From: an uncultured Brevinematales bacterium | Lineage (GTDB): Bacteria > Spirochaetota > Brevinematia > Brevinematales > CAYRWR01 | NCBI GenBank assembly: GCA_964428015.1 | Contig: CAYRWR010000008.1 | Coordinates: 8,916-72,915 of the forward strand | DNA: 64,000 nucleotides | Reading direction: 5' to 3' | Part shown: positions 2,891 to 53,068 of the stretch, in pieces | Numbering within the stretch: the first letter of the stretch is position 1 | Layout: each line of letters starts with the position of its first letter | Notes under the pieces: model-generated | The model's database searches: none | What the model was told of the DNA's origin: nothing | What the model saw: only the letters and a program-made list of their open reading frames with translations | Made by a program: the position numbers and the translations under genes

Positions 2891-2899
2891 GGTTATCTC

Positions 2900-37626: not shown

Positions 37627-37640
37627 TGACTACTCCTGTA

Positions 37641-38591
37641 TCAGTCATCCCTTCGGATTAAAGTGGGGATGAAGCTTTTTTGAATTTTATTTCTACTATC
37701 TTTTTGCAGTGAAGCTATCATTTCACTGGCTCCGGAAAAACCCATTTCAAAAGCCGGCTGGGCAATGCTGGAAAGCCCCAGGTACTGTGATGCTTCCTTG
37801 TCATCATAGCCCAGGATCAGGGGGTGAAGACCGGATTTGCGTCGCGCCTTGAGACCGCCATAGGCCAGTTCATCACAGAAATAAAATATCCCGTCGGGGG
37901 AATATTTCTGCATGGCCTGGAGGGTAGCTTCCAGGCTATCCAATTCATTAATAGGTATCCGCATATCACCAACCAATTCCAGCCCTTCCTGTTGAATAAC
38001 TTCTTCAAATCCCTGAAAGCGTTCGTCCTGTTGTTGAGTCTGCGTGTTTTCTCCGATGTATAGAATATTCCGGCAGCCCTGATCTAAGAGGTGACGGGCA
38101 GCTATTCTACCGCCCTGATGGTTATCGATAAAAAAGCTGGGATCATTTTCATCAAAATAATCGATATAGTAATAGAGTGTCCGGCTGTCGTTCAGGGCTT
38201 TTCGGGCTGTTTCGGGCAGAGCACAGGCTACGATTAATAGTCCGGGCAGGGCTTCATCCAGAATGTGTTCATATACTTCTTCTTTTTCTTCACCCAGGTT
38301 AAAAATCATGATATTGTAGTCTAGTTCAGAGACCGCGGAGTAGATCCCTTTAAGGATTTCAAAATAGAAAGGATGCACTGCCACCGGCAGGACCACCCCT
38401 AAAGTATGTCGCGAATATTCTCCCCGGGCCAGACTACGGGCCGCCTGATTGGGGCGAAAGTTGAGACTCCTGGCTGCTTCCATGACTTTTTGATAAGTCT
38501 CCGGGCTGACACTCTTGCCCCCATTAATCACCCGGGAGACAGTACCCAGTCCCACACCTGCCAGACGTGCTATATCCTTGATGGTCGCCAT
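37641..38591 (-). CDS. LacI-family transcriptional regulator (MalR-like)
   Basis: N-terminal HTH MATIKDIARLAGVGLGTVSRVINGGKSVSPETYQKVMEAARSLNFRPNQAARSLA, followed by a periplasmic-binding-protein-like sugar-binding fold. Confidence 0.9.
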   Translation of the reverse strand: MATIKDIARLAGVGLGTVSRVINGGKSVSPETYQKVMEAARSLNFRPNQAARSLARGEYSRHTLGVVLPVAVHPFYFEILKGIYSAVSELDYNIMIFNLGEEKEEVYEHILDEALPGLLIVACALPETARKALNDSRTLYYYIDYFDENDPSFFIDNHQGGRIAARHLLDQGCRNILYIGENTQTQQQDERFQGFEEVIQQEGLELVGDMRIPINELDSLEATLQAMQKYSPDGIFYFCDELAYGGLKARRKSGLHPLILGYDDKEASQYLGLSSIAQPAFEMGFSGASEMIASLQKDSRNKIQKSFIPTLIRRDD

Positions 38592-38608
38592 ATGACCTCC
38601 ATTCCCAA

Positions 38609-38637
38609 ATTATACTCTGGAAACGTTTCCATGTCAA
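38609..38637 (-). promoter_or_regulatory. sigma-70 promoter with embedded LacI-type operator (autoregulated regulator-GH31 operon)
   Basis: Minus strand reads TTGACA-TGGAAACGTTTCCA-GAG-TATAAT (17-nt spacer), then GGAGG and ATG 38591. The 14-bp perfect palindrome is at 38618-38631. Confidence 0.65.
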
Positions 38638-38755
38638 GGACTGAAGACCGCTTTTTCTCTGAGTATATCATAACTAATATTGTATTAAAATTACGCTTGT
38701 TCTAATATAAATTAAGCTTTGATGTAATTCGAGAACTTTTTAAGGAGTTGTTGAC

Positions 38756-39184
38756 ATGAAAAATATTGCATTAATTGTAGTCTTATTCATTTTAACGGTT
38801 AGCTGTACTTTCAGAGATCCCAATGAAATTATTATGCAGGATGGGCGGTGGGAAGGTACTAATGTCCAGTTTAACATTTTTGATAATAAAATCACTCCGG
38901 ATGGTAGTACACTCTATTATGGATACTGTATGTTAATTACTCTGGTGCTGACCAATACCAACCAGATATATAATTATACATTTGGGTATGGCGGAGAGTC
39001 ATTTCATGTCGTTTATATCACCGATAATCATTTCAGTGTGGATGTTTATGGATGTAAGGTCACAGGTACTGTGATCAGTCCGACCTCTATGATAGGCACA
39101 GCTCATTATGTAAACGAAGATTCTTATTATGGGCATGAAGAAGGTTATATTGATTGGTCAGCAAACCTGATCCAGGCCCGCTAA
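38756..39184 (+). CDS. hypothetical lipoprotein
   Basis: SD AAGGAG. Lipobox MKNIALIVVLFILTVSC. 142 aa with no recognisable domain. Confidence 0.55.
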   Translation: MKNIALIVVLFILTVSCTFRDPNEIIMQDGRWEGTNVQFNIFDNKITPDGSTLYYGYCMLITLVLTNTNQIYNYTFGYGGESFHVVYITDNHFSVDVYGCKVTGTVISPTSMIGTAHYVNEDSYYGHEEGYIDWSANLIQAR

Positions 39185-39297
39185 TCTCAGCATTCCAAAA
39201 ATAAAAAAATGTATACATCTCTGGTTCAAATCGGAAATACTTTAACGTATTTCCTGTGACTTCCGTTACACTATTCCGCCTGAGGACCTCTATTCGG

Positions 39298-39326
39298 TTG
39301 ACATGGAAACGTTTCCATGCTAATAT
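39298..39326 (+). promoter_or_regulatory. sigma-70 promoter with embedded LacI-type operator (GH13-GH13-GH63 operon)
   Basis: TTGACA (39298-39303)-TGGAAACGTTTCCA (39304-39317)-TGC-TAATAT (39321-39326). The first 20 nt are identical to the promoter at 38618-38637. Confidence 0.65.
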
Positions 39327-39351
39327 GGATATACCCTATAGGAGGTTCTCT

Positions 39352-41427
39352 ATGAAAAATCTCATTCTGATTTTAATCACATTTTTAGCATTTACCGCCT
39401 GTCAACAGCCTAAGACAGACAGCACTCAGGTCCAGGTCAGAGCAGACGTCTACCCCGACCTGGATACCCGCATCAATCTGGGCAGTCTGTACTTCAACAG
39501 CCGGGACCTGGCCTGCAAGAGCCCCTTCGGCGCGGTGACGATAGGCCAGAGTGTGACCCTCCATATCTATACCGGAAAGGGGGACGTCAGAAAAGTCAAC
39601 GCCGTCCTGACCCGCCAGGACATGGTGGGGAATTCCACCATGGAAAAATATCAAAAATATAAGACCCTGCCTATGAGTATCACCGGACAAACTAATGGAC
39701 AGGATATCTGGGAAGTCACCTTTAGTATTGACAAACTGGGGGTATATGGGTACCATTTTGAGCTGTTCAAAACAGACGAAGATGCCATCGTTCTGGCGGA
39801 TAACCAGAATCAGGTCAAGGTCCCTTACGTCAACATCAAAGGTACCGGCGGAGAGGGCCGTATCACTCCCCTTAAAAAGTATAAACTACCCTACACCCTG
39901 ACCGTGTACCAGCCTGATGATAAACTGGCTCCCTGGACTGCCAACATGATCATCTATTACATCTTTCCTGACCGCTTTAAAAACGGTAATAAAAAGAACG
40001 ACCCCATTCCCGGAAAAACCCTGTTTTATGACCAAAAGACTGTGGAATTTCACGCCAACTGGAATGACCCCAAACCCTGGGTGCCGGGAAAATCCGACGG
40101 TAATGAGACTGATGATAAGGAATATTGTAACGATTTTTACGGTGGTGATCTGGAGGGAGTCATCCAAAAGCTGGACTATCTTAAAACTCTGGGGGTCAAT
40201 GTCATCTACCTTAACCCCATCTTTTTCGCCCCTTCCAACCATAAATATGACACTGCCGACTATAAAAAAATAGATCCTGCCTTTGGAGACCTGGCTGTTT
40301 TTAAAAAGCTGGTAGCGGAAGCCAAAAAACGGGATATCCACATCATCCTGGATACCTCACTCAACCATTCCGGCAGTGATTCGGTGTACATGGACCGCTA
40401 TGGTAAATACCCTGGCCTGGGAGCCTTTGAAAAAGAGGTCATCCATACCGATTCTCCTTACTATGACTGGTATGAGTTTAATCCCAAAGCCACCAACCCC
40501 GACCAGATGTACAACCAATGGGCTAACCCCACTCTGGCTAATCTTAAGGAAAGCGACTCTTACAAAAAATTCGCCTATAAAGATTCCGACAGCGTGACCC
40601 GTTACTGGCTGACTCAGGGCGCGGGAGGCTGGCGTATGGATGTGACACCCTGGGTCAGCGATGACTTCTGGCGGGAATGGCGAAATGCCATCCGAATTGA
40701 TAATCCCGAGGCTCTTACTGTCTCTGAAGTCTGGTTTGACGCTTCCAAGTACCTGGTAGGGGATATGTTTGATACCACTATGAACTATATTTTCCGGCAG
40801 TGTGTGCTGGATATGGCCCGGGGCAAGAGCGCGGAAACCGCTATGCAGGGTCTGGAAATGATCCGGGAAAATTATCCAGCTCCGGCCTTTAAACGGGCTA
40901 TGAATCTGTTGTCCAGTCATGACCTGCCCCGGGTACTGTGGGAAGTGGGCTATAAAGAATATGGTCAGACGGATTATGCAGAATTCCGGGCCCGGATGCT
41001 GCTGGCAGTCTCCTTTCAGTTCACCTATCCCGGCGCACCTACCATCTATTACGGTGATGAGATCGGCCTGACCGGGGGCAATGACCCCTTCAACCGGGGC
41101 CCCTATCCCTGGAAAGAAGACGGCGGCAATTATGGCGACCCCAGTCTGTTGGCTGATTTCCAGAAGCTGGCTGCTCTGAGGCGGTCCCACCCTGTCTTTC
41201 AGGAAGGAGAGCTGAAACTGCTCTATACTGATAAAAATCTGGTAATTATCCAGCGGCAGGATAAACAGGAAAAGATTGTGCTGGTATTTAATAATTCCAA
41301 ACAGGAAAAAGGCCTCCCTGCAGGAATCATTCCCATGAATGAATACAGGGACCTGTTCCGTGACTCTACACTCAGCATTTCTGACACTACCATGATACCG
41401 GCCCTGTCCTTTTTTATCTTGAAATAA
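39352..41427 (+). CDS. GH13 alpha-amylase-family enzyme (neopullulanase/cyclomaltodextrinase-like) lipoprotein
   Basis: ATG 39352 follows AGGAGG (the track ORF starts at 39256, upstream of the promoter). Lipobox LITFLAFTAC. GH13 regions ILDTSLNHSG, GGWRMDVTPW, VSEVW, LLSSHD. Confidence 0.9.
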   Translation: MKNLILILITFLAFTACQQPKTDSTQVQVRADVYPDLDTRINLGSLYFNSRDLACKSPFGAVTIGQSVTLHIYTGKGDVRKVNAVLTRQDMVGNSTMEKYQKYKTLPMSITGQTNGQDIWEVTFSIDKLGVYGYHFELFKTDEDAIVLADNQNQVKVPYVNIKGTGGEGRITPLKKYKLPYTLTVYQPDDKLAPWTANMIIYYIFPDRFKNGNKKNDPIPGKTLFYDQKTVEFHANWNDPKPWVPGKSDGNETDDKEYCNDFYGGDLEGVIQKLDYLKTLGVNVIYLNPIFFAPSNHKYDTADYKKIDPAFGDLAVFKKLVAEAKKRDIHIILDTSLNHSGSDSVYMDRYGKYPGLGAFEKEVIHTDSPYYDWYEFNPKATNPDQMYNQWANPTLANLKESDSYKKFAYKDSDSVTRYWLTQGAGGWRMDVTPWVSDDFWREWRNAIRIDNPEALTVSEVWFDASKYLVGDMFDTTMNYIFRQCVLDMARGKSAETAMQGLEMIRENYPAPAFKRAMNLLSSHDLPRVLWEVGYKEYGQTDYAEFRARMLLAVSFQFTYPGAPTIYYGDEIGLTGGNDPFNRGPYPWKEDGGNYGDPSLLADFQKLAALRRSHPVFQEGELKLLYTDKNLVIIQRQDKQEKIVLVFNNSKQEKGLPAGIIPMNEYRDLFRDSTLSISDTTMIPALSFFILK

Positions 41428-41440
41428 ACAGGAGTATATA

Positions 41441-43219
41441 ATGAAAAATTTCATTAAAGTGATTGCCTTATTGTTTTCTGTGCAGCTCTTAGTCAGCTGC
41501 GGGAGCGGGTTCCAGTCCACTTTTCCGGAAGAAAAACCGGTCAGTCTGCCTCAGGCTGGAAAGGGTGCTCCCCGGGTGGTGGGGGATAAGGTAGTTTTTA
41601 CCTATACCACCAAAGGGAAAAAGAAATCGGTGAATCTGGCAGGTACGTTCAATAATTGGGATAAGGAGAATCTTCCCATGCAGGAGATAAGTGAAGGGGT
41701 CTGGCAGACCAGCCTGGCTCTGAAAGAAGGAAAATATGAATATAAGTTTTATATCAACGGCAGTATGTGGGTAGCCGATCGTGACAATCCCGCGGTAACC
41801 TCAGACGGCTGGGGAAACAGCATCATCATAGTGGACCAAAAGGGCCAGGTCAAACTGATGTCGGTAGGCCTGTCTGAAAAATATCCTTCCTACCTCTATG
41901 CCAATACCGCTGCCCCGGAGAGCCCGCAGTGGATAAAAGATGCGGTTATTTACGAACTGTTCCCCCGTACCTTTACCTCACAGGGTTACCAGGGATTGAT
42001 AAAAAAACTGGATTATCTGGCTGATCTGGGGGTTACCACTCTGTGGATCATGCCTACTTTCCCCATAGGCAAAAAAAACCGTAAAGGAAGTCTGGGCAGC
42101 CCCTATTCTGTCAAAGACTATACCGATATCAATCCTGAATTTGGTACCAAAAAAGACTTCAAGGCTTTTGTAGAAGGGGCGCATAACCGGGGGATGAAAG
42201 TCATACTGGACTGGGTGCCTAATCATACCGCCTGGGACAATGACCTCACCAAAAAGCATCCCGAGTTTTATCTCAAGGATGCCAAAGGCAATATCCAGGT
42301 CCCGCCTGATACAGACTGGACCGATGTGGCCCAGCTGGATTATTCCAACGAGGGACTGAGAGAATACATGATTTCCGCCCTCAAGTACTGGGTCACTGAA
42401 TTCGGTGTTGACGGGTATCGTATGGATGTAGCCGGACGTGTGCCCCACAGCTTCTGGGATCAGGCCCGTTCTGAACTGGCCAAGGTCAGACCAGATTTGC
42501 TGCTCCTGGCTGAATCTGAAGAACCGGAACACCATCTGCATGGTTTTGATCTGACCTATTCCGGAAGTGTCAAAGGAGTGGTACAGGGTATAGCCCGCTC
42601 CAGTCAGAAACAGCATGATTTTTTCCAGGTATATAACAAACAGAAATATAATTTCCCCAAAAAAGCGCTGCGTATGAACTGGATGGAAAATCATGACCAG
42701 GTACACGCGCTCAAGAATCTGGGTGCCAAGGCCATTTATCCTGGTGCCGTCATCCATTTGACGATGGATGGGGTACCCTTGATCCTGATGGGACAGGAGA
42801 TAGGCGATACCAACTGGCAGGACTGGCACTCTTTATTTGATCCTGTACAGCTCGACTGGGAACACAGCGACACTAATCTCCAGCAGTTTTATAAGAGTCT
42901 CATCCATCTGAGACGGGAACATCCGGCCCTGCTCCACGGGGATCTTCAGCTTATCCAGACCGACCAGGAAAAAGTGGTGGCCTATGTTCGCATAGCTGAC
43001 CAGGAAGCTATACTGGTCGTGGTAAATCTCTCAGCCAAGCCTCATACTGTAAATCTTAAACCAGCTGACCTGAAAAAAGCGGGTTTTCTTCTAAAAAAAG
43101 GTCTCACCCTGAAAAGTTACTCTCCGGGAGTAGAAAAAGACAGTATACTGGAATCTCTACCCCTGGAACTGGCACCCTGGCAGTCTCTGATCCTGATGGA
43201 AGGCAGGGCTGATAAATGA
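41441..43219 (+). CDS. GH13 alpha-amylase-family enzyme with N-terminal CBM48/E-set glycogen-binding domain, lipoprotein
   Basis: Lipobox LFSVQLLVSC. VVFTYTTKGKKKSVNLAGTFNNWDKENLPMQEISEGVWQTSLALKEGKYEYKFYING (AMPK-beta-like CBM). GH13 regions ILDWVPNHTA, GYRMDVAG, LLAESEE, WMENHDQ. Confidence 0.9.
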   Translation: MKNFIKVIALLFSVQLLVSCGSGFQSTFPEEKPVSLPQAGKGAPRVVGDKVVFTYTTKGKKKSVNLAGTFNNWDKENLPMQEISEGVWQTSLALKEGKYEYKFYINGSMWVADRDNPAVTSDGWGNSIIIVDQKGQVKLMSVGLSEKYPSYLYANTAAPESPQWIKDAVIYELFPRTFTSQGYQGLIKKLDYLADLGVTTLWIMPTFPIGKKNRKGSLGSPYSVKDYTDINPEFGTKKDFKAFVEGAHNRGMKVILDWVPNHTAWDNDLTKKHPEFYLKDAKGNIQVPPDTDWTDVAQLDYSNEGLREYMISALKYWVTEFGVDGYRMDVAGRVPHSFWDQARSELAKVRPDLLLLAESEEPEHHLHGFDLTYSGSVKGVVQGIARSSQKQHDFFQVYNKQKYNFPKKALRMNWMENHDQVHALKNLGAKAIYPGAVIHLTMDGVPLILMGQEIGDTNWQDWHSLFDPVQLDWEHSDTNLQQFYKSLIHLRREHPALLHGDLQLIQTDQEKVVAYVRIADQEAILVVVNLSAKPHTVNLKPADLKKAGFLLKKGLTLKSYSPGVEKDSILESLPLELAPWQSLILMEGRADK

Positions 43220-45588
43220 AAAGACTTTCATTAATTTTAATAGTGCTCTTTTCCCAAGCCATGGCCTTTGCCAAAGAGATGGTGCTGATATTTCAGGACA
43301 AAGACACCCTGCAAGGTTTGGATAAAGTCAGTGTTATTCTGATGAAGGACGGAAAACGTGATAAACTGGGGAGCAGCGACGGGAGCGGTAAAGTCAGTAT
43401 CACCTATGATAAAAAAGCCACGGGTAATAAAGTGATGTTTTTCCGTAAAGGCTATAAAAAAGAGTGTATGGCATACGAGGATATCATGAAACAGAAAGAA
43501 CCGTTACTGCTGCAGGAAAAAATGCCCCCTCTGGAAGTTAAGAATCTCAGAGTACTGCAGGAAGATGGAAAGACCTGGCTGGTTTGGGACGCGTCGGCAT
43601 CACCGGATACGGATTATTACCAGATCTACTACCGGGAGGGCCTGAATCCCTACCAGAGACTGAAGGATAAATATACTTCTACCCGTCTGGAAATTGTCCC
43701 CCTGGAAGAGGCAAGGGATTATTACTTCCAGGTCAAAGCCCAGGATAAGAATAAAAATAAAAACAAAGGAACAGAACTGCATTACTACCACCAGTCCGAC
43801 TACCCCATGCTACCCCAGACTGCTTCAGTGAGTGGTACTGTCTCCGGACTGGAAGGGCAGAATGGCCTGGTCATATTTTATCCTGTCAACCTGGGAGATA
43901 CACTACAGGTGGATGCCGCTCCGCGAAAAATAAAATGTGATGCCTCCGGTGGTTTTCAGATCAAAGATCTCCCTGAGGGACGTTATACCGTAAAAGCCTT
44001 TGCTGATATGAATGGCAACGGAGCCTGGGATGGTAACTGGCTCAAGGCCCTGCCTGAACCAAGAGCTATTCTGTATGATATTAGGGTCAGCAAAAAAACA
44101 CCTCTAAAACTAAATCTGAAACTGGAAAAAAAGTTCACGGGTATGCCCAAGGTAATCTATGATGAATCACCCGGTTACATCGATCTCTACCAGGCTGCCT
44201 GGCAAATGGCCAGAGCCAAAATCACCCCCGGTCATACTGAGAACGGATTTGTCACGGCCTATATGGACGAAGGTTTCAATAACCACATATATCAGTGGGA
44301 CACCTGCTTTATGATGTTTTTTGGCATCTACGGCGGGGATGACTTTCCGGCTATGAACAGCCTGGATAATTTCTATCTCAAACAGCGCCCCAATGGATAT
44401 ATCTGCCGGGTCCAGAATGAAGATACCGGGAAGGACTACGATCCCAGCCTAAACGATCCTAGTGTGAACCCGCCTCTCTATGCCTGGCTGGAATGGACCT
44501 ATCTGCGGGTCACCGGTGATGACAGCCGTCTGCTGTGGGCTCTGACTCATCTGGACCGCTATTATCACTGGCTCAAGAATAATGTTAGAAGGGAGGGAGG
44601 CTGGTACTTCACTTCGAACCTGGGCTCCGGCATGGATAATTCTCCCCGGGAGGGGCAGGCCTGGGGCTGGGTGGATATGACCGCGCAGATGGCATTGTTT
44701 GCCGACCGGATGGCAGCCCTGGCCAGACAGGCGGGGATACCTTCAGCAAAGGCATATTATGAAAAGGAATACCAGGATCTCAGCAGTCTGATAAATACTA
44801 CCATGTGGGATGAGGATAAGCAGATTTACTTTGACGTGAAAAAAAATTCTTCTCTGCATCGTAAGAAAACCATCGCTTCTTTCTGGCCTATGCTGGCCCG
44901 TATTGTTTCAGCAGACCGGCTCAAAGGCCTGGTGTCTCATCTGGAAAACCCGGCGGAATTTAAAACCCTGCATGTTTTCCCCACACTGGCCAGGGACGAA
45001 GCGGAATATGACCCTAAAGGATACTATTGGAGAGGGGGAGTGTGGGCGCCCACTACATTTATGGTGATAAAGGGGCTGGAAGCAAACGGTCTGTATGACC
45101 TGGCCCGCCGGTCCGCACTCAATCATGTCCATAATATGTGGAAGATATACCAGAACTGTGTGCCTGATAAAAATAAACTACCCTACAAAGAAAGTAATAT
45201 CCCCTTCCCGGCACACCTGGACGGCACAAAACAAATCTGGGAATTGTACAGCCCGGAAAAAGAAGAACCCGGTACCCGCTGGGATAACCAGTTTTATGGC
45301 CGGCCGGAATTTGTGGGCTGGAGCGGTGTGGGTCCCATAGTACTTTTCATCGAAAATATCCTGGGGATTGTACCGGATGCCCTTTCCAAAAAAATAGTCT
45401 GGAGAGTGAACAGTGGCAAAAAGCACGGTATCCAAGGTCTGGGCTTTTTGGGAGGAAGGGTAGACCTGGTCATGGAAGGTATCAAGGACGGACAGCCCAG
45501 TTTTACTATACATTCCAGCCGTGATTTTGAACTGGAGGTGTGGTATCTGAACAAAAAGAGGGTGATTCCTGTAACAGCCGATCTTTGA
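43216..45588 (+). CDS. multidomain glycoside hydrolase: Ig/Fn3-like N-terminal modules + GH63-like (alpha/alpha)6 catalytic domain
   Basis: ATGA overlap with the upstream gene. Signal peptide. Fn3-like LEVKNLRVLQEDGKTWLVWDAS...YYFQVKAQD. DUF2141-like GRYTVKAFADMNGNGAWDGN. C-terminus YQWDTCFMMFF...NPPLYAWLEW...GSGMDNSPR...GGVWAPTTFMVIKGL is typical of GH63/MGH-type six-hairpin hydrolases. Confidence 0.7.
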   Translation: MKRLSLILIVLFSQAMAFAKEMVLIFQDKDTLQGLDKVSVILMKDGKRDKLGSSDGSGKVSITYDKKATGNKVMFFRKGYKKECMAYEDIMKQKEPLLLQEKMPPLEVKNLRVLQEDGKTWLVWDASASPDTDYYQIYYREGLNPYQRLKDKYTSTRLEIVPLEEARDYYFQVKAQDKNKNKNKGTELHYYHQSDYPMLPQTASVSGTVSGLEGQNGLVIFYPVNLGDTLQVDAAPRKIKCDASGGFQIKDLPEGRYTVKAFADMNGNGAWDGNWLKALPEPRAILYDIRVSKKTPLKLNLKLEKKFTGMPKVIYDESPGYIDLYQAAWQMARAKITPGHTENGFVTAYMDEGFNNHIYQWDTCFMMFFGIYGGDDFPAMNSLDNFYLKQRPNGYICRVQNEDTGKDYDPSLNDPSVNPPLYAWLEWTYLRVTGDDSRLLWALTHLDRYYHWLKNNVRREGGWYFTSNLGSGMDNSPREGQAWGWVDMTAQMALFADRMAALARQAGIPSAKAYYEKEYQDLSSLINTTMWDEDKQIYFDVKKNSSLHRKKTIASFWPMLARIVSADRLKGLVSHLENPAEFKTLHVFPTLARDEAEYDPKGYYWRGGVWAPTTFMVIKGLEANGLYDLARRSALNHVHNMWKIYQNCVPDKNKLPYKESNIPFPAHLDGTKQIWELYSPEKEEPGTRWDNQFYGRPEFVGWSGVGPIVLFIENILGIVPDALSKKIVWRVNSGKKHGIQGLGFLGGRVDLVMEGIKDGQPSFTIHSSRDFELEVWYLNKKRVIPVTADL

Positions 45589-46170: not shown

Positions 46171-46575
46171 ATGCTAAAAACATGGCTGCTGGTACTGACA
46201 ATATTCCTGATTGCAGGGTGCAAGGGGGCAAAAACAGTGGAATACAGCTATTTTGACGGGAGCGGAAACCAATACCGTCTGACTTTGGATCCCCTGGTAC
46301 TGGAGTATAATCCCATCCAGCCCCTGGAGAGTTCTTCCGGTGAATACAGCGGAGGGGAAGCATATCGCTATGTATTAACCAGTGAGCAATTGGATGCTTT
46401 AAAAAACGCGATCGATATCGCGGTTAGTGACACCATACACCATATCTCCAACCGGGTGATGATGTCCGGGATGATCAGGATAAAAAATGAACACAGCAGT
46501 GAAGTATATATCCTCAGCCCTGGTGCGCCTTCCAAAGCCAGGATAGAGGAATTATTACATTCCTATAAACCTTAA
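46171..46575 (+). CDS. hypothetical lipoprotein
   Basis: Lipobox MLKTWLLVLTIFLIAGC. 134 aa. Confidence 0.55.
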   Translation: MLKTWLLVLTIFLIAGCKGAKTVEYSYFDGSGNQYRLTLDPLVLEYNPIQPLESSSGEYSGGEAYRYVLTSEQLDALKNAIDIAVSDTIHHISNRVMMSGMIRIKNEHSSEVYILSPGAPSKARIEELLHSYKP

Positions 46576-46605
46576 CCTTTAGCAAACAAATTTTGGAGAG
46601 ATGAA

Positions 46606-47052
46606 ATGGACGCTGGGGAACTGCAGAGTTATATCTACGAGCATATTCCAGTTATCGCACAAAACCATTTTGAGATCCAGGAAATAAAAGATGAACAGGT
46701 TTTTTTTAAAGGCAGCCTCAAAGAACATATAAATCACAGGGACTCCGCTTTTGGAGGCAGTCTTTCTTCTCTCATGATACTTACAGCCTGGTCTGCCGTC
46801 AGGATTATGACGGATAAACTGAAAAATGTGGTCATTGTCATCCAGAATTCCCATGTGGATTTTCTGAAACCGGTTCTGGCAGATTTTACTGCTGTAAATC
46901 ATCAGCTGCCCCCGGCTATCAGGCAAAAGTTATTCCAGAGTCTGCAACGTTTTGGCAAGGGCAGAGTGACAATGAATGTCGATCTCTATACCAATGACCC
47001 TCATGATATACTGGCATCTTTCAAAGGTGATTTTGTAGTGGTGCAAAAATAA
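46606..47052 (+). CDS. hot-dog-fold thioesterase (YiiD C-terminal-domain-like)
   Basis: 148 aa. ...HINHRDSAFGGSLSSLMILTAWSAVRI...IQNSHVDFLKPV... resembles the YiiD_C/4HBT thioesterase family. Confidence 0.55.
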   Translation: MDAGELQSYIYEHIPVIAQNHFEIQEIKDEQVFFKGSLKEHINHRDSAFGGSLSSLMILTAWSAVRIMTDKLKNVVIVIQNSHVDFLKPVLADFTAVNHQLPPAIRQKLFQSLQRFGKGRVTMNVDLYTNDPHDILASFKGDFVVVQK

Positions 47053-47068
47053 ATCGGTACTAATTTCA

Positions 47069-47656
47069 TTAAATAAACAGATATTCCTGACGGATAATAG
47101 GTTCTCCGATTTCCAGTTCCAGAGCACTGATCTCATTATCATCCACCCACTTGGGTACCCGGGTACACCGGAACTGGTGTTCCAGACCGGATTGACGGAT
47201 CAATTCTATAGAACGTTTGATGCGGCGGATGTCAATATCAGGTAAATCTACAGTCTTTCCGTATTTGCTCCAGGAGTTTTTAATATCCATGGCGATAAAG
47301 TCCACCAGCCCGGAATCGATGGCTTCTTCCAATACCTCAGGTAGATACCCGTTGGTGTCAAGTTTGGTTTTAAAAGCATGCTGCTGGCACCAGCGGAAGA
47401 ATTTTTTCAGTCCTTTCCAGCTGAGGCTGGGCTCACCCCCGGTCACACATACCGCCTGGATTTTTCCGCGCCGGGCTATGAGGTAATCCTGAATATCTTT
47501 GACTTCCAGGTCGGGGAGTTTTTCGTACTGGTGAGGGTAAATCAAATCCTGATTGTAGCACCAGGGACAGCGGAAATTACAGCCGGCTGTGAACAGAGTA
47601 CAGCAGGTCAGCCCGGGATAATCCACCAGACTGACCCTTTCCATGCCTTTAAACAT
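47069..47656 (-). CDS. nrdG: anaerobic ribonucleoside-triphosphate reductase activating protein (radical SAM)
   Basis: VSLVDYPGLTCCTLFTAGCNFRCPWCYNQDL (CxxxCxxC cluster) and GVCVTGGEP-like QAVCVTGGEPS. An alternative start ATG 47644 (MERVSL...) would avoid overlap with the small upstream ORF. Confidence 0.9.
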   Translation of the reverse strand: MFKGMERVSLVDYPGLTCCTLFTAGCNFRCPWCYNQDLIYPHQYEKLPDLEVKDIQDYLIARRGKIQAVCVTGGEPSLSWKGLKKFFRWCQQHAFKTKLDTNGYLPEVLEEAIDSGLVDFIAMDIKNSWSKYGKTVDLPDIDIRRIKRSIELIRQSGLEHQFRCTRVPKWVDDNEISALELEIGEPIIRQEYLFI

Positions 47657-47807
47657 GCGCGCGGGAATCCAGGCACTTATCGTAATGATTTCGTTCCTGA
47701 AATTCCTGCTTTTTTCCTACGTTCCAGTTCTGTACAGGGCGGTAGTAACCTACCACGCGGGAGTACACTTCAGTGGGGATGACGATCTTTTTTTCAGTGG
47801 TTTCCAT
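47649..47807 (-). CDS. 52-aa stand-alone glycyl-radical domain of class III RNR (not in ORF track)
   Basis: My translation: METTEKKIVIPTEVYSRVVGYYRPVQNWNVGKKQEFQERNHYDKCLDSRAHV. EVYSRVVGYYRPV..WN.GK..EF..R is the conserved NrdD C-terminal radical-Gly motif. SD AAGGAG lies 10 nt upstream. ATG is 4 nt after the nrdD stop and in another frame. The stop overlaps the nrdG ATG. Confidence 0.7.
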   Translation of the reverse strand: METTEKKIVIPTEVYSRVVGYYRPVQNWNVGKKQEFQERNHYDKCLDSRAHV

Positions 47808-47811
47808 GTTT

Positions 47812-49953
47812 TTAAATCTCCTTATTCATTTCCAATGTATCTAAATATACTCCATACTTTTCCAGTTCTGCTTCGCTATGAGGGAGAGGACAGTGCGCGT
47901 GCTCTCCTCCGATATAGCCATGCACCGGGCAGACGGAAAAAGTGGGGGTGATAGAGAAATAGGGCAGACGGTATTGGCTGGCGATGATCCGGACCAGATT
48001 GGACATGGATTCCGGCCGGATATTTTTTTCACCCAGAAAGACGTGTATTACCGTGCCGCCGGTAAATTTGGACTGGAGGCTGTCCTGATGGTCCAGCAGC
48101 TCAAAAATGTCCGTAGTATGGTGGACGGGAAGATGCACAGAATTGGTATAGTAGGGGACCTCATGGGTACCGGAGTGCAGTATATCGGGCCAGGTCTTTT
48201 TATCGTTTTTAGCCAGACGGTAGGATGCCCCTTCCGCGGGGCTGGCTTCCAGATTGTAAAGATGACCTGTCTCTTCCTTATACTGGTCCATTCGGTTCAG
48301 CATAAAGTCCAGTACTTCTTCCGCAAAATCTTTGGCTTCGGGTTGGGCATAGTCTTTTTTGAGGAGGTTCATTACTGCCTCGTTCATACCCAATAGCCCT
48401 ATGGTAGAAAAATGATTGGTCCAGTAGTGCCCCGTGCGTCTTTTAATTTCCGCCAGGTAGACGCTGGTAAAGGGATATAGACCTTTTTCCGTTAATTCCT
48501 CCACCATCTTACGCTTGATCTCCAGTGAAGAGCGGGCTTTGTCCATGACTCCCCCCAGCAGCTGGAAGAATTCCCGCTCTGACTGAGCCTGGTAGGCCAG
48601 GCGAGGGAGGTTAATAGTCACTACCCCGATACTGCCGGTCATAGGATTGGCTGAAAACAATCCGCCCCGTTTAACTCCGCTATCGTGACTGGTTTCTGCA
48701 GATTTACCCAGCATCTGTTTTTTGACCTGTCGGTTATCGAGACGGAGGCGGCAGCACATGGAGCGCGCGTCTTCTTCGCTCATGTCGGAATTGATAAAAT
48801 TGCTGAAATAGGGTGTACCGTACTTGGCGGTCATTTCCCACAGAGGCTGGTAGGCAGGATTGGTCCAGTCAAATTCGCGGGTGATGTTATAAGTAGGGAT
48901 AGGAAAGGTAAAAGGCCGGCCATGTTTATCGCCCTCCAGCATCACTTCCGCGAAGGCACGGTTGATAAGGGTCATCTCTTCAGTATAATCCGCATAGGCA
49001 CTGTTATGTAATTTTCCCCCGATGATCACAGCCTGTCTGGCCAGATAGGAGGGTACAGTCAGGTCAAAGGTCAGATTGGTAAATGGTGTCTGAAAACCGA
49101 CCCGGGTGGGTACATTCAGGTTGAACACAAATTCCTGCATGCACTGCTTTACATCTTTATATTCCAGGCGGTCATGCCGGATAAAAGGGGCCAGCAGGGT
49201 GTCAAAATTAGCAAAAGCCTGGGCTCCGGCGGCTTCACCCTGAAGGGTGTAGAAAAAGTTTACGATCTGGCCCAGGGCGGTGCGTAAATGACTAGGTGGA
49301 CCTGAAGATATCTTGCCACTCACTCCCCCGAACCCCATCATCAGGAGCTGTTCCAGATCCCAGCCCACGCAGTAGGCAGACAGTAGCCCCAGGTCATGAA
49401 TATGAAAATCTCCCCTGCGGTGTGACTCGCCGATCTCCGGGGTGTAGATACGGGTTAGCCAGTAGTTGGCGGTCAGCGATGAAGCTATGTGTGAATTTAG
49501 ACCCTGCAGAGAATAGCTCATGTTGGAGTTTTCATTGACTCTCCAGTCCTGGAGCTGAAGATAATCATCGATTGTTTTGAGACTTTCCTGAAAGGCCTGA
49601 TCCATATGTCGGGCTTCACTCCGTTTGGACCGGTACAGGATATAGGCTTTGGCAGTACGCCGGTAGCCCATATTCATGAGGGTGTCTTCCACCATATCCT
49701 GAATATGTTCGATGTCTACTACTTCTGTTTCCAGCCGGTGAATCACAAAACCGGCACATTGCCAGGCTTCTCCCGGGCTGCCTTCACCACAAGCCTCAAA
49801 AGCCTTGGCTACTGCGCCAGCTATACGGCTGATGTCAAAGTCGACGACTCGCCCGTCCCGTTTCCGGACCAGACTGGCTTTACCTTCGGTTTTTTTGTTT
49901 TTCTGAATCTCCAATACTAACTGTTCCACGATATCCCCTCCGCTTATTTGCAT
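47812..49953 (-). CDS. nrdD: anaerobic ribonucleoside-triphosphate reductase, large (catalytic) polypeptide lacking the glycyl-radical tail
   Basis: 713 aa. N-terminal ATP-cone (LVRKRDGRVVDFDISRIAGAVAKAF). Core motifs MCCRLRLD, NLPRLAYQ, PYYTNS. Ends after CPVHGYIGGEHAHCP... with no RxxGY motif. Confidence 0.9.
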   Translation of the reverse strand: MQISGGDIVEQLVLEIQKNKKTEGKASLVRKRDGRVVDFDISRIAGAVAKAFEACGEGSPGEAWQCAGFVIHRLETEVVDIEHIQDMVEDTLMNMGYRRTAKAYILYRSKRSEARHMDQAFQESLKTIDDYLQLQDWRVNENSNMSYSLQGLNSHIASSLTANYWLTRIYTPEIGESHRRGDFHIHDLGLLSAYCVGWDLEQLLMMGFGGVSGKISSGPPSHLRTALGQIVNFFYTLQGEAAGAQAFANFDTLLAPFIRHDRLEYKDVKQCMQEFVFNLNVPTRVGFQTPFTNLTFDLTVPSYLARQAVIIGGKLHNSAYADYTEEMTLINRAFAEVMLEGDKHGRPFTFPIPTYNITREFDWTNPAYQPLWEMTAKYGTPYFSNFINSDMSEEDARSMCCRLRLDNRQVKKQMLGKSAETSHDSGVKRGGLFSANPMTGSIGVVTINLPRLAYQAQSEREFFQLLGGVMDKARSSLEIKRKMVEELTEKGLYPFTSVYLAEIKRRTGHYWTNHFSTIGLLGMNEAVMNLLKKDYAQPEAKDFAEEVLDFMLNRMDQYKEETGHLYNLEASPAEGASYRLAKNDKKTWPDILHSGTHEVPYYTNSVHLPVHHTTDIFELLDHQDSLQSKFTGGTVIHVFLGEKNIRPESMSNLVRIIASQYRLPYFSITPTFSVCPVHGYIGGEHAHCPLPHSEAELEKYGVYLDTLEMNKEI

Positions 49954-50040
49954 AAGACCTGGTCAATACCGTGAGCCGGCACAGGATTTTCCACAATGGG
50001 AAAGCTGATTGATCAGATCTTTCAATCCACCCCGAATGAA

Positions 50041-50228
50041 AGTTGTCTGCAGCAACACGAACAGGTCTTCCGACTTATGAGGCTAAGGTCTTTCCTGGGA
50101 AGCAAGCTGTTCTCCCGACCTTCGCGGTTTCCCACTGGACAGGTGCTGGCTTCCTTGTTCCTCATTTACGGCTGCGGGGGCAGTCGGGGATTCTCACCCC
50201 ATTCCCTTCGAATATCCGCGTGCTGTGA
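50041..50228 (-). promoter_or_regulatory. cobalamin (B12) riboswitch in the nrdD leader
   Basis: The minus strand reads GAAGGGAAUGGGGUGAGAAUCCCCGACUGCCCCCGCAGCCGUAA (50209-50166). This matches the conserved AGGGAA / GGUG..AAUCC / CCCGC..C.GUAA core. It is followed by the B12-box-like GAAGCCAGCACCUGUCC (50153-50137). Confidence 0.8.
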
Positions 50229-50233
50229 TTCTT

Positions 50234-50262
50234 ATTATGCCGGACAGTTCTGAAAAACGCAA
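50234..50262 (-). promoter_or_regulatory. sigma-70 promoter of the riboswitch-nrdD transcript
   Basis: Minus strand TTGCGT (50262-50257)-17 nt-CATAAT (50239-50234), immediately upstream of the riboswitch. Confidence 0.5.
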
Positions 50263-50284
50263 GACTTTTCAAAAAAAATCTTAT

Positions 50285-53068
50285 TCAAAACTGTCTGTCT
50301 GAAAAATATTCTCCCACCTGTTTTTGCAAGGGGGATATTCGTTGGGGAATTTTATCATCCTGGAATAAATATCCCGCGTCATAGGAGATGCCCCAGTGAT
50401 AACCCCATCTGTTGTCATTGATGGCATAGTAGACTTCACCGGCTACCCGGAGACCGATATACTGGAAGAGCACCATGTTGAGGCTCATGGAAACATACAA
50501 GCTATGGTAATAATCCTGCAGCAGACTGGCGGCACGGTAGCCTGCCAGAGAGTATAGCCTCTGGATGTAAAAGGGTAGAGCACCCAAACCTCTTTGTATT
50601 TCCAGACTAAACAGATTCATCCTGGCATTGGCGTAGAGGTAGAGAGTCCCGCTATCCGGCCGCAGGGCATATTCAGATAGGAGAGGTTTGTAATGGTAGT
50701 AAAAATCAAAATCACTCCCGCTCAGCGATAAACTACTGTTCAGCACCCAGGCGGCATGCATGGTCACGAATAGAGGCAGGGCCTGAGGGGAAAAGAAGGT
50801 GTCTGCTTCTATCTTCCACTTATCGCCCTGGAAAGGGTGATCCAGATAGAGACTGAACTGTATGCCTCTGGCCCGGGGAAAAGGATACAAACCGGTATAA
50901 CTGGATATCCGGGCCCATATTCCCCATTGAGTAGTCAGGAAGCTGTAGGGTGTGGCATATACCTGAGGAGAGTCAATGCTGATAAAGCTGAAGGCATCAT
51001 GTATCAGACTAAAACCCAGATGCAGGAAATGATTCACAGGCAGAAAATACCAGGTATGGCCTATGTCCAGGGAGATACTGGTACTGCGGAATTTATACGC
51101 GCTCAAATCAGGTTTAAAGAGTTCATCTTTAAAGCTGATCATCCAGGGTAATTCCGTAGCGGTATTCTGCCAGGTGATATCCAGATTGACAAATGGGGCC
51201 AGCAGGCTGTAATCCAGGTAGGGCATGATAATATTATTGCGGGAGGGGTCAGCCAGGTAGGTGACCAGTCCGATCCCCTGCAGGGATGTCCCGTACAGGT
51301 GGGGCCAGGGTGCCCATAATTGGGGCTTGAGAAAAGCCAGTGTTTTGTAGGGTTTCTCTGTGAGGTGAGTGACTGGAGGTAATGGAGCTTGATTGGTCAG
51401 ATTCAGCTCTTGCCACTGGACCCTGCTGGTGAGCGGGTGTATACCTGAGGGTAGCTGCATCAGTTTGTCACCCCGGGAAAACTGTCCCAGATAATACAAC
51501 CGGTCTGAAGTAATCAGGGGCAGGTGAATGCCACCCAGAATCTGATTGGTATATTGATAGAGGATGTCTCCTTCTATATAGGCTCCCTGACTCAAACCTC
51601 TGCCGTCATGCCAGGAAAAACAAATCTGATTAGAATGGACAGAGATATCCCTTATCTGAGGCAGAAGGGGTGTATTCGGACTTTCCGGTTGCGTCATAAT
51701 TTCCACAGAATTATTGTCCGGGTTAAATCGCGCGATATACTTTAATCCATGCAGACGCAGTGAAAAAAGGATACTGCCGTCCTGCCGGGAGGAAGGGCTC
51801 CCGAAATACATTTCCGGTTCACCCTGGAGTAGCACCTTTACTCCTTCCGGAGAGAGAAAGACCAGATCGGTGAGAAACCCCCGGGGCTGTACGGCGACGA
51901 TGCCGTCCCGGTAAAACCCGGCTTCTCTCACACCCGTCCATTGAACTTTTTCCCAGTGATGCCGTCTCAGGTCAAAAACCTGGACCAACAGACGGGGCTT
52001 GCCTCTTAACAGTGAAGACCGGCTGACCAGCAGGCGCCTACCGTCTGGGTGTAGTACCAGGCGGTCTATATAAGCATCAGTTTTTACTACCAGTTTTTCT
52101 TTGTGAGTGGCGGTGTCATAGCTGTATATAGCCTGTCGGAAGCCATCCTGATAGTATAGCAACCTGCCGTCACTGACTATTGAATCGACAGACAGGTAGG
52201 GCTTTAGGATGATATTGGTATTGGTGAGGAGGGGGAAATCCAGGATCATTGTCTTCCGGAAATCCTGCCATTCCTGTCTCAGACTATTGGTATAGGTGAG
52301 ACGGAAGCTGCCGGGCAGCATCAAAAAAGGATTACCCCCTCCGGTCCGGTGCCAGAGTTCCCGGTACTTATCCAGGCCGTATTTGCCAATCAAAAACCGG
52401 TTGAAATATCCCCCGTAGTGATAAATGATCCTCCCTCCAGGGTAGAGGTCAAAACCTCCGCTAGCCTGACTCAAGGATTTAAATCTGCCCTCAGCCTGAT
52501 CCTGGCGCAGTTCATCCTTAACTATATTTAAATTACCCCGGCCGAAACCGTCCAGACTTTCTACACTGACGGTCACCCCTTCTACCATAAAGCCGGGTAT
52601 CATGTACATCTGAGGCAGGACCCAGCTGCCGAAAAGGTGGTAGGCAAATTCCATCAAGGGGCCCCGGATGGTCAGAGATACGGCATGAGCGAGTTCATGG
52701 ATAAATAGTGCCTGGAGGTAGTCGGGATTATGGGCGATGACTGAATCGTTTTCGGAAGGATAGACATAAAGCACAATATGATTTTGAGGGAGGGGCAGAG
52801 AGTAGCCATTAGCCCCCTGATAATCATCAGAGAGCAGGACAGTGATGCGGTCAGTGCTGGCCCGCTGCAGCAAGCCCTGGACTCTTTCATAATAACTGTC
52901 GGCAAATCCAGCCAGACGCTGCGCTTCATAGCGACTGTAGTCTGAGTATAGTATATCAAAATATTTGGTACTGATTTGGAATAACCGTGTGCCGGGGGCT
53001 GTTTCGCCGCTAAAGGAAAAAGTGGTCAATAGAAAGATTAGCAGCAGAAAGTAAACAGATTTTTTCAT
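50285..53068 (-). CDS. large outer-membrane protein, distant paralog of 13377-16226 (HExxH peptidase-like N-terminus, beta-propeller-like middle, beta-barrel-like C-terminus)
   Basis: Signal MKKSVYFLLLIFLLTTFSFS. FIHELAHAVS...FMVEGVTVS. Same N-terminal layout as the other protein (F.I.Y...A.......I.VLL...HELxHA). Aromatic-rich alternating C-terminal third ending ...YFSDRQF. Confidence 0.65.
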   Translation of the reverse strand: MKKSVYFLLLIFLLTTFSFSGETAPGTRLFQISTKYFDILYSDYSRYEAQRLAGFADSYYERVQGLLQRASTDRITVLLSDDYQGANGYSLPLPQNHIVLYVYPSENDSVIAHNPDYLQALFIHELAHAVSLTIRGPLMEFAYHLFGSWVLPQMYMIPGFMVEGVTVSVESLDGFGRGNLNIVKDELRQDQAEGRFKSLSQASGGFDLYPGGRIIYHYGGYFNRFLIGKYGLDKYRELWHRTGGGNPFLMLPGSFRLTYTNSLRQEWQDFRKTMILDFPLLTNTNIILKPYLSVDSIVSDGRLLYYQDGFRQAIYSYDTATHKEKLVVKTDAYIDRLVLHPDGRRLLVSRSSLLRGKPRLLVQVFDLRRHHWEKVQWTGVREAGFYRDGIVAVQPRGFLTDLVFLSPEGVKVLLQGEPEMYFGSPSSRQDGSILFSLRLHGLKYIARFNPDNNSVEIMTQPESPNTPLLPQIRDISVHSNQICFSWHDGRGLSQGAYIEGDILYQYTNQILGGIHLPLITSDRLYYLGQFSRGDKLMQLPSGIHPLTSRVQWQELNLTNQAPLPPVTHLTEKPYKTLAFLKPQLWAPWPHLYGTSLQGIGLVTYLADPSRNNIIMPYLDYSLLAPFVNLDITWQNTATELPWMISFKDELFKPDLSAYKFRSTSISLDIGHTWYFLPVNHFLHLGFSLIHDAFSFISIDSPQVYATPYSFLTTQWGIWARISSYTGLYPFPRARGIQFSLYLDHPFQGDKWKIEADTFFSPQALPLFVTMHAAWVLNSSLSLSGSDFDFYYHYKPLLSEYALRPDSGTLYLYANARMNLFSLEIQRGLGALPFYIQRLYSLAGYRAASLLQDYYHSLYVSMSLNMVLFQYIGLRVAGEVYYAINDNRWGYHWGISYDAGYLFQDDKIPQRISPLQKQVGEYFSDRQF

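Follow-up and report, generated by a model that had tools for sequence, protein, structure and literature searches.

A separate gene for the glycyl-radical loop of class III ribonucleotide reductase in a Brevinematales bacterium and other lineages

We analysed a stretch of 64,000 nucleotides (nt) from an uncultured Brevinematales bacterium (contig CAYRWR010000008.1, positions 8,916 to 72,915 of the forward strand), called the window below, in which the glycyl-radical loop of NrdD, an anaerobic (class III) ribonucleotide reductase (RNR), is encoded by a small open reading frame (ORF) of its own, located between nrdD and the activase gene nrdG. We consider it highly probable that this locus encodes an obligate two-subunit class III RNR, in which the radical subunit would be translated on its own, be activated by NrdG and dock in trans. 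This reading is built on what was observed in the window and in its relatives: the gene architecture and its conservation, the independent start signals of the small ORF, the conserved catalytic residues and the position of the break.

A three-gene operon with a stand-alone radical-loop ORF

The three genes are located on the minus strand. The nrdD gene (47812 to 49953) encodes a large subunit of 713 amino acids (aa) with an ATP-cone, a catalytic barrel and a Cys/His metal site, and without a glycyl-radical loop. It is followed by an ORF of 52 aa (47649 to 47807), which encodes the glycyl-radical loop and the following helix of NrdD as a stand-alone protein, and by the gene for the 195-aa activase NrdG (47069 to 47656), a radical S-adenosylmethionine enzyme. 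The 713-aa ORF matched PF13597 with 589 bits over positions 1-531 of 562, PF03477 (ATP-cone) with 72 bits, and NCBIfam model NF006126 with 980 bits (cutoff of 548) over positions 4-654 of 684. The 52-aa ORF matched the remainder of PF13597 (533-562 of 562, E = 1.1e-9) and positions 592-623 of NF006358 (E = 4.2e-12). NrdD models were the only ones matched by this small ORF in Pfam and NCBIfam scans at E ≤ 0.1, in which no match was found to PF01228, the glycyl-radical domain of the pyruvate formate-lyase type. The two ORFs tile NF006126 almost exactly (positions 4-654 and 651-682), and both alignments map the break just before the radical loop (PF13597 531/533; NF006126 654/651). A preliminary description of this DNA had placed a separate 52-codon glycyl-radical ORF between nrdD and nrdG, and the family matches (PF13597 1-531 and 533-562) bore this out.

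A regular-expression search of the 713-aa ORF found no R..GY motif; together with the family match that ends at position 531 of PF13597, this agrees with the earlier statement that NrdD lacks RxxGY here. The motif RVVGY is carried by the 52-aa ORF at residues 17-21, and Gly20 (GGT codon, 47748 to 47750, minus strand), located by the motif and invariant in the homologues, is the predicted radical glycine. The 713-aa NrdD sequence matched the solved NrdDs 8P23 and 4COI. A phmmer search with the 52-aa ORF against PDB sequences returned nothing at E ≤ 1, because the query is too short.

Direct reading of the minus-strand junction (AAT AAG GAG ATT TAA aaac ATG) showed that the nrdD stop codon TAA and a 4-nt spacer, AAAC (47808 to 47814), precede the small ORF, which lies in the +1 frame. 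Its Shine-Dalgarno (SD) sequence, AAGGAG, is located within the last codons of nrdD (47818 to 47823), 10 nt before the ATG, and upstream of this ATG its frame is closed by a TGA at a distance of six codons. The stop codon of the small ORF overlaps the ATG of nrdG by 8 nt (ATGTTTAA). The preliminary description had reported the 4-nt distance and the change of frame, the SD sequence at 10 nt and the 8-nt overlap, all of which were confirmed; the coordinates that it gave for the small ORF, 47649-47814, were right at the start, and their end takes in the nrdD stop codon, since the ORF itself ends at 47807.

The product of nrdG matched TIGR02495 (NrdG2) with 163 bits (cutoff of 131), as well as PF04055 and PF13353, and has the cluster motif CNFRCPWC. 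The gene downstream of nrdG is convergent. No terminator was found between the three genes, in a scan of 46500-50600 that was uninformative, the promoter and terminator counts being no higher than those of shuffled controls. A cobalamin riboswitch (50043 to 50233, minus strand) was found in the leader of nrdD, upstream of its start codon by about 90 nt, with a full-length match to RF00174 of Rfam (62.4 bits for a gathering score of 31.5, E = 4.8e-13). The unit riboswitch-nrdD-small ORF-nrdG is a three-gene operon for a class III RNR.

The same riboswitch family was found upstream of the split nrdD in three relatives (L085, 1047-1265; L086, 1052-1232; L084, 1666-1801). B12 riboswitches commonly repress B12-independent isozymes, and this usual role suggests that a B12-dependent class II RNR is encoded elsewhere in the genome and that B12 represses the class III enzyme in the window organism and in the riboswitch-bearing relatives. 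The presence of the riboswitch also implies that the split operon is regulated and used.

Comparison of split bodies and fused relatives in an alignment of 46 sequences showed that residues M391, C392, C393 and R394 of the finger loop (S-M-C-C-R-L) are invariant, as are many barrel residues, the equivalents of the metal-site residues C670, H673 and C683 being also invariant and that of H687 at least 90% conserved. In the window NrdD, the finger-loop motif MCCR (residues 399-402; 48748 to 48759, minus strand) contains the presumed thiyl-radical cysteine, and the metal-site region CPVHG...HCPLPH (residues 675-692; 47878 to 47931, minus strand) has CPxPH instead of the usual second CPxC knuckle. 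If this region binds a metal, as its sequence predicts, the fourth ligand would be a histidine rather than a cysteine; the metal motif of T. maritima, CxxxHx6CxxC, shows that Cys/His variants exist. Finger-loop motif classes, including the MCCR double-cysteine class, have been described (PMC9669993), and the subtype assignment of the window enzyme follows the MCCR motif as described there: it would belong to the double-cysteine lineage of class III, of which T. maritima is typical and which is associated with thioredoxin-type reduction (PMC9669993). At the level of sequence, the conservation of the catalytic residues in the split bodies is a visible functional constraint.

Split loci in other lineages and the signals at their junctions

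A database search with the 52-aa protein returned 160 proteins, all of which (160/160) are stand-alone proteins of 46-89 aa carrying the NrdD C-terminal match alone. Among the sources named for them are Brevinematales, Thermospira aquatica, Latescibacterota, Aminicenantes, Acidobacteriota and Spirochaetota. Some entries are labelled 'anaerobic ribonucleoside-triphosphate reductase' or 'hypothetical protein' and, as far as can be seen, the small-ORF sequences are public but uninterpreted. The alignment of 36 stand-alone homologues showed a core, (V/I)xPTEVYSRVVGYYRPVQNWNxGKxxEFxER, with 16 invariant positions and with variable sequences at both ends.

We then scanned genomes, one per species, for the motif E[VI]YSR[VI]VGY, which gave 598 relatives, and analysed the best 80 loci. 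The radical loop was found in a short separate ORF in 36 of these 80 loci and was fused to NrdD in the other 44. The split loci include those of Thermodesulfatator autotrophicus S606, Aquificales, Caldimicrobium, Thermodesulfobacterium, WOR-3, Fermentibacteria and relatives, Chloroflexota and DPANN archaea, and cultured isolates, such as T. autotrophicus S606, are among them. Outside the 80 loci, the split also occurs in two complete genomes, those of Thermospira aquatica (CP073355, L004) and of Brevinematales bacterium NS (CP053071, L087). When the NrdD of a fused relative was used as the query, about 98 of the best 120 homologues gave coverages of 88-92% and were bodies of 690-710 aa without the loop.

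The junctions were surveyed at 41 split loci, in 36 of which the NrdD body was in view. The small ORF starts with ATG at all of them (41/41). An SD-like match of at least 5 nt is located 3-11 nt from this ATG in 33 of the 41, a match of 4 nt is present in six more and none was found in two. The frame offset of the small ORF relative to nrdD is 0 in 11 junctions, 1 in 15 and 2 in 10, and the spacers range from an 8-nt overlap (-8) to +66 nt, plus one of 322 nt. At the L085 junction (CAA TAA ATG), the stop codon is directly followed by an in-frame ATG; at the L086 junction, a spacer of 36 nt holds a second in-frame stop codon, TAG; and at the L087 and L004 junctions the spacers are 18 and 21 nt, in frame 0. 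In the Spirochaetota locus L005, the NrdD body and the small ORF are separated by an inserted gene (2839-3906) for a 355-aa IS630-type transposase with DDE_3 and helix-turn-helix domains; the small ORF nevertheless keeps its GGAGG-ATG and is followed by an intact nrdG. The preliminary description had asked whether the split, the SD sequence and the frame offset are conserved in related genomes: the first two are kept and the third is not. Judged from these junctions, the small subunit is predicted to be translated separately, and not by frameshifting, across the family.

The frameshift explanation, which we regard as very unlikely, states that ribosomes pause at AUU-UAA at the end of the window nrdD, slip by +1 as in prfB and make a fused NrdD, the small ORF being merely apparent. 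The slip would lead into the frame of the small ORF (...NKEI-KNMETTEKK...), with ...EMNKEIKNMETTEK... as the junction peptide of the fused product. The window has an SD-like AAGGAG directly before AUU UAA A and a short open stretch between the stops of the two frames. In prfB, however, 3 nt separate the SD sequence from the shift codon, and re-pairing of the P-site tRNA is good, whereas in the window the spacing is 0 nt and the Ile-tRNA would have to re-pair on UUU, the same AAGGAG being at a workable 10 nt from the ATG of the small ORF. Even among the nearest relatives (L085, L086, L087 and L004) the site is not kept, and frames and spacers differ. The spread of the offsets over 0, 1 and 2 in the 36 junctions, the spacers that reach 66, 322 and 1205 nt, and the presence at every small ORF of its own ATG, nearly always with an SD sequence, also argue against this reading, which the preliminary description had listed and which we reject.

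It is equally improbable that the peptide is a facultative spare part of the GrcA type, repairing oxygen-damaged enzyme while routine activity comes from a full-length NrdD encoded elsewhere. The precedent for this explanation is GrcA/YfiD, which plays such a role for pyruvate formate-lyase, and a locus that would suit it is L022 (about 3967-4150), in which an orphan radical-loop ORF with a GGAGGT SD sequence is flanked by two genes for rhodanese-domain proteins, no NrdD body being encoded within 4 kb; this ORF could encode an unlinked subunit or a true spare part. At nearly all loci, however, the peptide is encoded inside the nrdD-nrdG operon with overlapping or near-abutting boundaries, and the adjacent large subunit, having no radical loop of its own, would be useless without it. 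A second nrdD was not seen in the window, where the large ORFs nearest the operon were examined. The likeness to GrcA/YfiD that the preliminary description had drawn holds only as a concept; GrcA backs up an enzyme with its own radical domain, which the large subunit lacks here.

The least probable explanation, a recent inactivating indel or an assembly error in a decaying class III pseudogene tolerated thanks to another RNR, could draw on the cobalamin riboswitch, which implies a probable B12-dependent RNR that could relax selection, and on the fused state of the close relative L006, but it is contradicted by a 361-nt junction stretch (47600-47960) that is 100% identical in three contigs from independent assemblies of separate sequencing runs (SRR13617030, SRR13617047 and SRR13617032), by the split in dozens of lineages with intact ATG and SD sequences, by the invariance of the catalytic and metal-site residues in split bodies and of the peptide core, by the intact riboswitch, nrdG and overlapping gene boundaries, and by an in-frame GAGGAGG-N5-ATG in L006 that points to a secondary fusion and not to an ancestral state. 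By the yardstick that the preliminary description itself had set, the indel or pseudogene reading is refuted, as the split, the ATG and the SD sequence are kept in relatives. Neither an assembly error nor gene decay nor a frameshift site accounts for the split, and the comparative data favour the bona fide two-piece RNR that was the first of the three readings proposed at the outset.

The position of the break and a proposed mechanism

Comparison of the sequences around the break showed that compact fused relatives read ...TPTFS(I/V)CxxHGYxxGEHxxCPxCGxxTEVYSRVVGY, the metal site running directly into the radical loop, whereas in the subclade of the window the second knuckle is CP(Y/L)PH and is followed by a helix ((S/T)EEEL..YG) and then by a variable tail. 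This CP(Y/L)PH subclade contains, in a neighbour-joining tree built from 67 NrdD cores, 19 split and three fused members (L006, L068 and L013), and the linkers of the fused members range from about 12 to more than 100 low-complexity residues.

The NrdD of the fused relative L006 (P0126, 765 aa) was modelled with AlphaFold2 from the 46-sequence alignment. The model had a mean predicted local distance difference test score (pLDDT) of 83.7 and a predicted template modelling score (pTM) of 0.79, and it matched solved NrdDs in Foldseek with E values of 1e-32 to 1e-21. Gly735, the equivalent of Gly20 of the window peptide, is placed at the tip of a beta-hairpin (residues 728-739) that is followed by a helix. 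The sole C-terminal stretch of low confidence, residues 702-718 (ESTYFITKEEGKMKEKK), is the exact place of the stop codon, SD sequence and ATG in the split relatives. In this model, the break thus sits in a flexible, length-variable surface linker of the fused relatives, which would explain both the tolerance of fission and its majority state in the subclade of the window. The fused gene of L006, from Brevinematia, keeps an in-frame GAGGAGG-N5-ATG inside the linker (3960-3985), at the position of the small-ORF start. This retained SD-ATG suggests a secondary fusion rather than an ancestral state, and could result from a secondary re-fusion, dual expression or an assembly indel.

Splits were also found outside the main subclade in the neighbour-joining tree. 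The Spirochaete loci L037, L061 and L065 keep CPxC, with a coiled-coil-like tail on the body and a coiled-coil-like head on the small protein. In the DPANN archaeal loci L011 and L015 the cut falls within the second knuckle (...CP | xCGK.TEVY), so that the small protein would contribute one metal ligand, and L072 is split in a way that is different again. These positions in the tree indicate that fission probably happened several times. Insertions are present at the same knuckle spot in the fused counterparts L083 and L024.

According to the two-subunit mechanism that we propose, the 713-aa NrdD would supply the ATP-cone for allosteric control, the barrel and its MCCR finger loop, and the Cys/His metal site, while the 52-aa product, translated from its own SD sequence and ATG and coupled to nrdD and nrdG, would supply the hairpin bearing the radical Gly20. 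With S-adenosylmethionine, NrdG would remove the hydrogen of Gly20 in the small protein, which would dock non-covalently into the barrel with its hairpin beside the MCCR loop. The Gly20 radical would then generate a thiyl radical on the finger-loop cysteine, and nucleotide reduction would proceed as in single-chain NrdD. Since the large subunit has no radical loop, the peptide would be an obligate subunit and not a back-up. Expression of the peptide, its assembly in trans and its activation by NrdG are predictions, as is any benefit of the arrangement, such as cheap replacement once oxygen has cleaved the peptide, or easier access for the activase.

Several points weigh against this two-subunit reading. 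The support for all members of the family comes from sequence comparison and structure prediction. The folded chain was that of the fused relative, so that docking in trans is a prediction drawn from a single-chain model. The sequence AAGGAG-AUU-UAA-A of the window formally permits a +1 slip, and a minor fused product is formally possible there. The riboswitch suggests a co-existing B12-dependent class II enzyme, which makes the reliance of the organism on the split RNR uncertain. Finally, the three fused members nest within the split clade in the tree, which is a neighbour-joining one only, so that fission and fusion may have occurred in either order and more than once.

In single-chain enzymes, the glycyl-radical domain must flip out of the core for activation (PMC12662201; PMC4493059). 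This movement, like the work of GrcA in trans, is a precedent for a radical domain that is mobile, and a free radical subunit would make the movement unnecessary. Glycyl radical enzymes are cut by oxygen at the radical glycine, a situation in which GrcA rescues pyruvate formate-lyase; in the enzyme proposed here, only the 6-kDa piece would need replacing.

The small subunits differ in the residues that follow the radical loop. The window peptide has a single cysteine, Cys45, which is conserved in its two closest relatives. Nine short small subunits (L007, L010, L011, L014, L015, L016, L045, L047 and L078) have at least two cysteines after the loop, and most of the nine end in a Cys pair (CGC, CAC, CC or CEC); among 45 fused relatives, at least two cysteines in this position were found only in three glutaredoxin-like fusions. 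The small proteins of eight Spirochaete loci (L037, about 3928-4426; L060, 3280-3867; L061, L065, L009, L038, L043 and L071) are 158-221 aa long, the loop being followed by a glutaredoxin-like domain (PF00462, CPxCP motif) at the C-terminus; at the Spirochaete loci with these long small proteins, the NrdD tail and the small-protein head are both coiled-coil-like in appearance. The archaeal loci L030, L066 and L056 encode full-length fused NrdDs with a glutaredoxin/thioredoxin-like domain after the loop. The Cys pair of the small subunits may be a redox shuttle, and from these sequences a reductant module seems to be attached recurrently at the position after the radical loop.

A more speculative extension of the two-subunit reading, which we put forward tentatively and think less likely to be right than wrong, is that the small protein is a consumable, exchangeable radical cartridge, charged by NrdG while free, plugged into NrdD and swapped after oxygen cleavage. 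Charging would then need no flipping of a domain out of the barrel, and repair of the class III RNR would be cheap. In lineages with a C-terminal Cys pair or a glutaredoxin-like domain, the small protein may also deliver the reducing equivalents along with the radical, as a functional counterpart of the class I beta subunit and the redox-active alpha tail combined.

Two split bodies, those of L021 (1076 aa) and L069 (1310 aa), exceed the others greatly in length. P0129 and P0186, database relatives that are about as long, carry intein and LAGLIDADG domains (PF14890 and PF14528), and intein insertion and gene fission probably co-occur in this NrdD clade. In the window, a 927-aa ORF located directly upstream of the riboswitch (50285-53068, minus strand) matched no Pfam family at E ≤ 0.001, and a cluster of glycoside-hydrolase genes (35266-45588), comprising a GH31 gene, two genes of the alpha-amylase family and an MGH1/trehalase-like gene with fn3, flanks the RNR operon and appears unrelated to the split. 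No tRNA genes were found within the 64-kb window.

Comparison with known systems

The closest system for comparison is the single-chain NrdD/NrdG of T4, E. coli, T. maritima (4U3E/4COI), Prevotella copri (8P23) and Streptococcus thermophilus (9D3X). As well as a putative metal-binding ribbon, the ATP-cone, the barrel, the finger-loop cysteine, the RVxGY loop and the adjacent radical S-adenosylmethionine activase are common to these enzymes and to that of the window, the finger loop of which is of the MCCR type, as in the T. maritima lineage. The window differs in that the radical loop is on a separate polypeptide of 52 aa and the second knuckle is CPxPH and not CPxC, and its NrdD has an extra helix (SEAELEKYG) and a tail after this knuckle, both of which are absent from compact fused enzymes.

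Other RNR catalytic subunits are known to be made from two adjacent genes and assembled non-covalently, namely the class II NrdJa/NrdJb of Pseudomonas aeruginosa (PMC4520616) and NrdA-a/NrdA-b of phage Aeh1 (PMC3653736). As in the window, the small piece of the P. aeruginosa NrdJ is a C-terminal functional module. Both of these enzymes belong to other RNR classes, however, and in neither does the separated part carry the radical, unlike that of the window. The Aeh1 split was caused by a homing-endonuclease gene, whereas the window spacer is 4 nt long and contains no mobile element, and Rfam introns gave no match in the window at the gathering thresholds. Interruptions of phage nrdD have been reported as introns, inteins and unexplained fragmentations, with no conserved radical-loop gene.

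With a prfB-type site, the window has in common an SD-like sequence, a codon that might slip, an in-frame stop codon and a +1 downstream ORF, a superficial likeness that is confined to the window. The two differ in that the site and the frame offset of the window are not conserved in its homologues, its SD spacing is different and its downstream ORF has start signals of its own.

GrcA/YfiD (and phage T4 Y06I) resembles the window peptide as a small stand-alone glycyl-radical-loop protein that acts, or by analogy would act, in trans with a large barrel subunit. GrcA works in this way for pyruvate formate-lyase, and spare-part proteins are known for formate lyases only, according to a 2026 review (PMC13450708). 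Activation by the cognate activase is presumed for both GrcA and the window peptide. GrcA is homologous to the C-terminus of pyruvate formate-lyase (PF01228), whereas the window peptide matches the NrdD model PF13597 alone. GrcA is about 127 aa long and is encoded away from pflB, while the window peptide has 52 aa and is encoded between nrdD and nrdG. Moreover, the enzyme that GrcA backs up has a radical domain of its own, and the window large subunit has none.

A stand-alone NrdD radical protein was not found described in the full-text literature searched, most subscription journals being outside its reach. The separate radical-loop subunit would make this a new form of an enzyme that is by its other features a class III RNR. 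It also bears on annotation, as many NrdD entries in the databases are 'truncated' bodies, the partners of which are unannotated or labelled hypothetical, and genomes with the split enzyme would be misjudged in any RNR census for which the glycine motif is a requirement.

The textbook glycyl radical enzyme is a single chain, the radical domain of which swings out to the activase and back in to work, and to our knowledge GrcA, the emergency spare for pyruvate formate-lyase, is the only known detachable radical domain. The split enzyme offers a way to ask whether transient oxygen can be tolerated through exchange of the radical piece. If our reading is correct, activation would become separable from catalysis, with a 6-kDa peptide that could be labelled, mutated or titrated alone, and a widespread obligate two-piece class III RNR would mean that the radical loop can be a true subunit.

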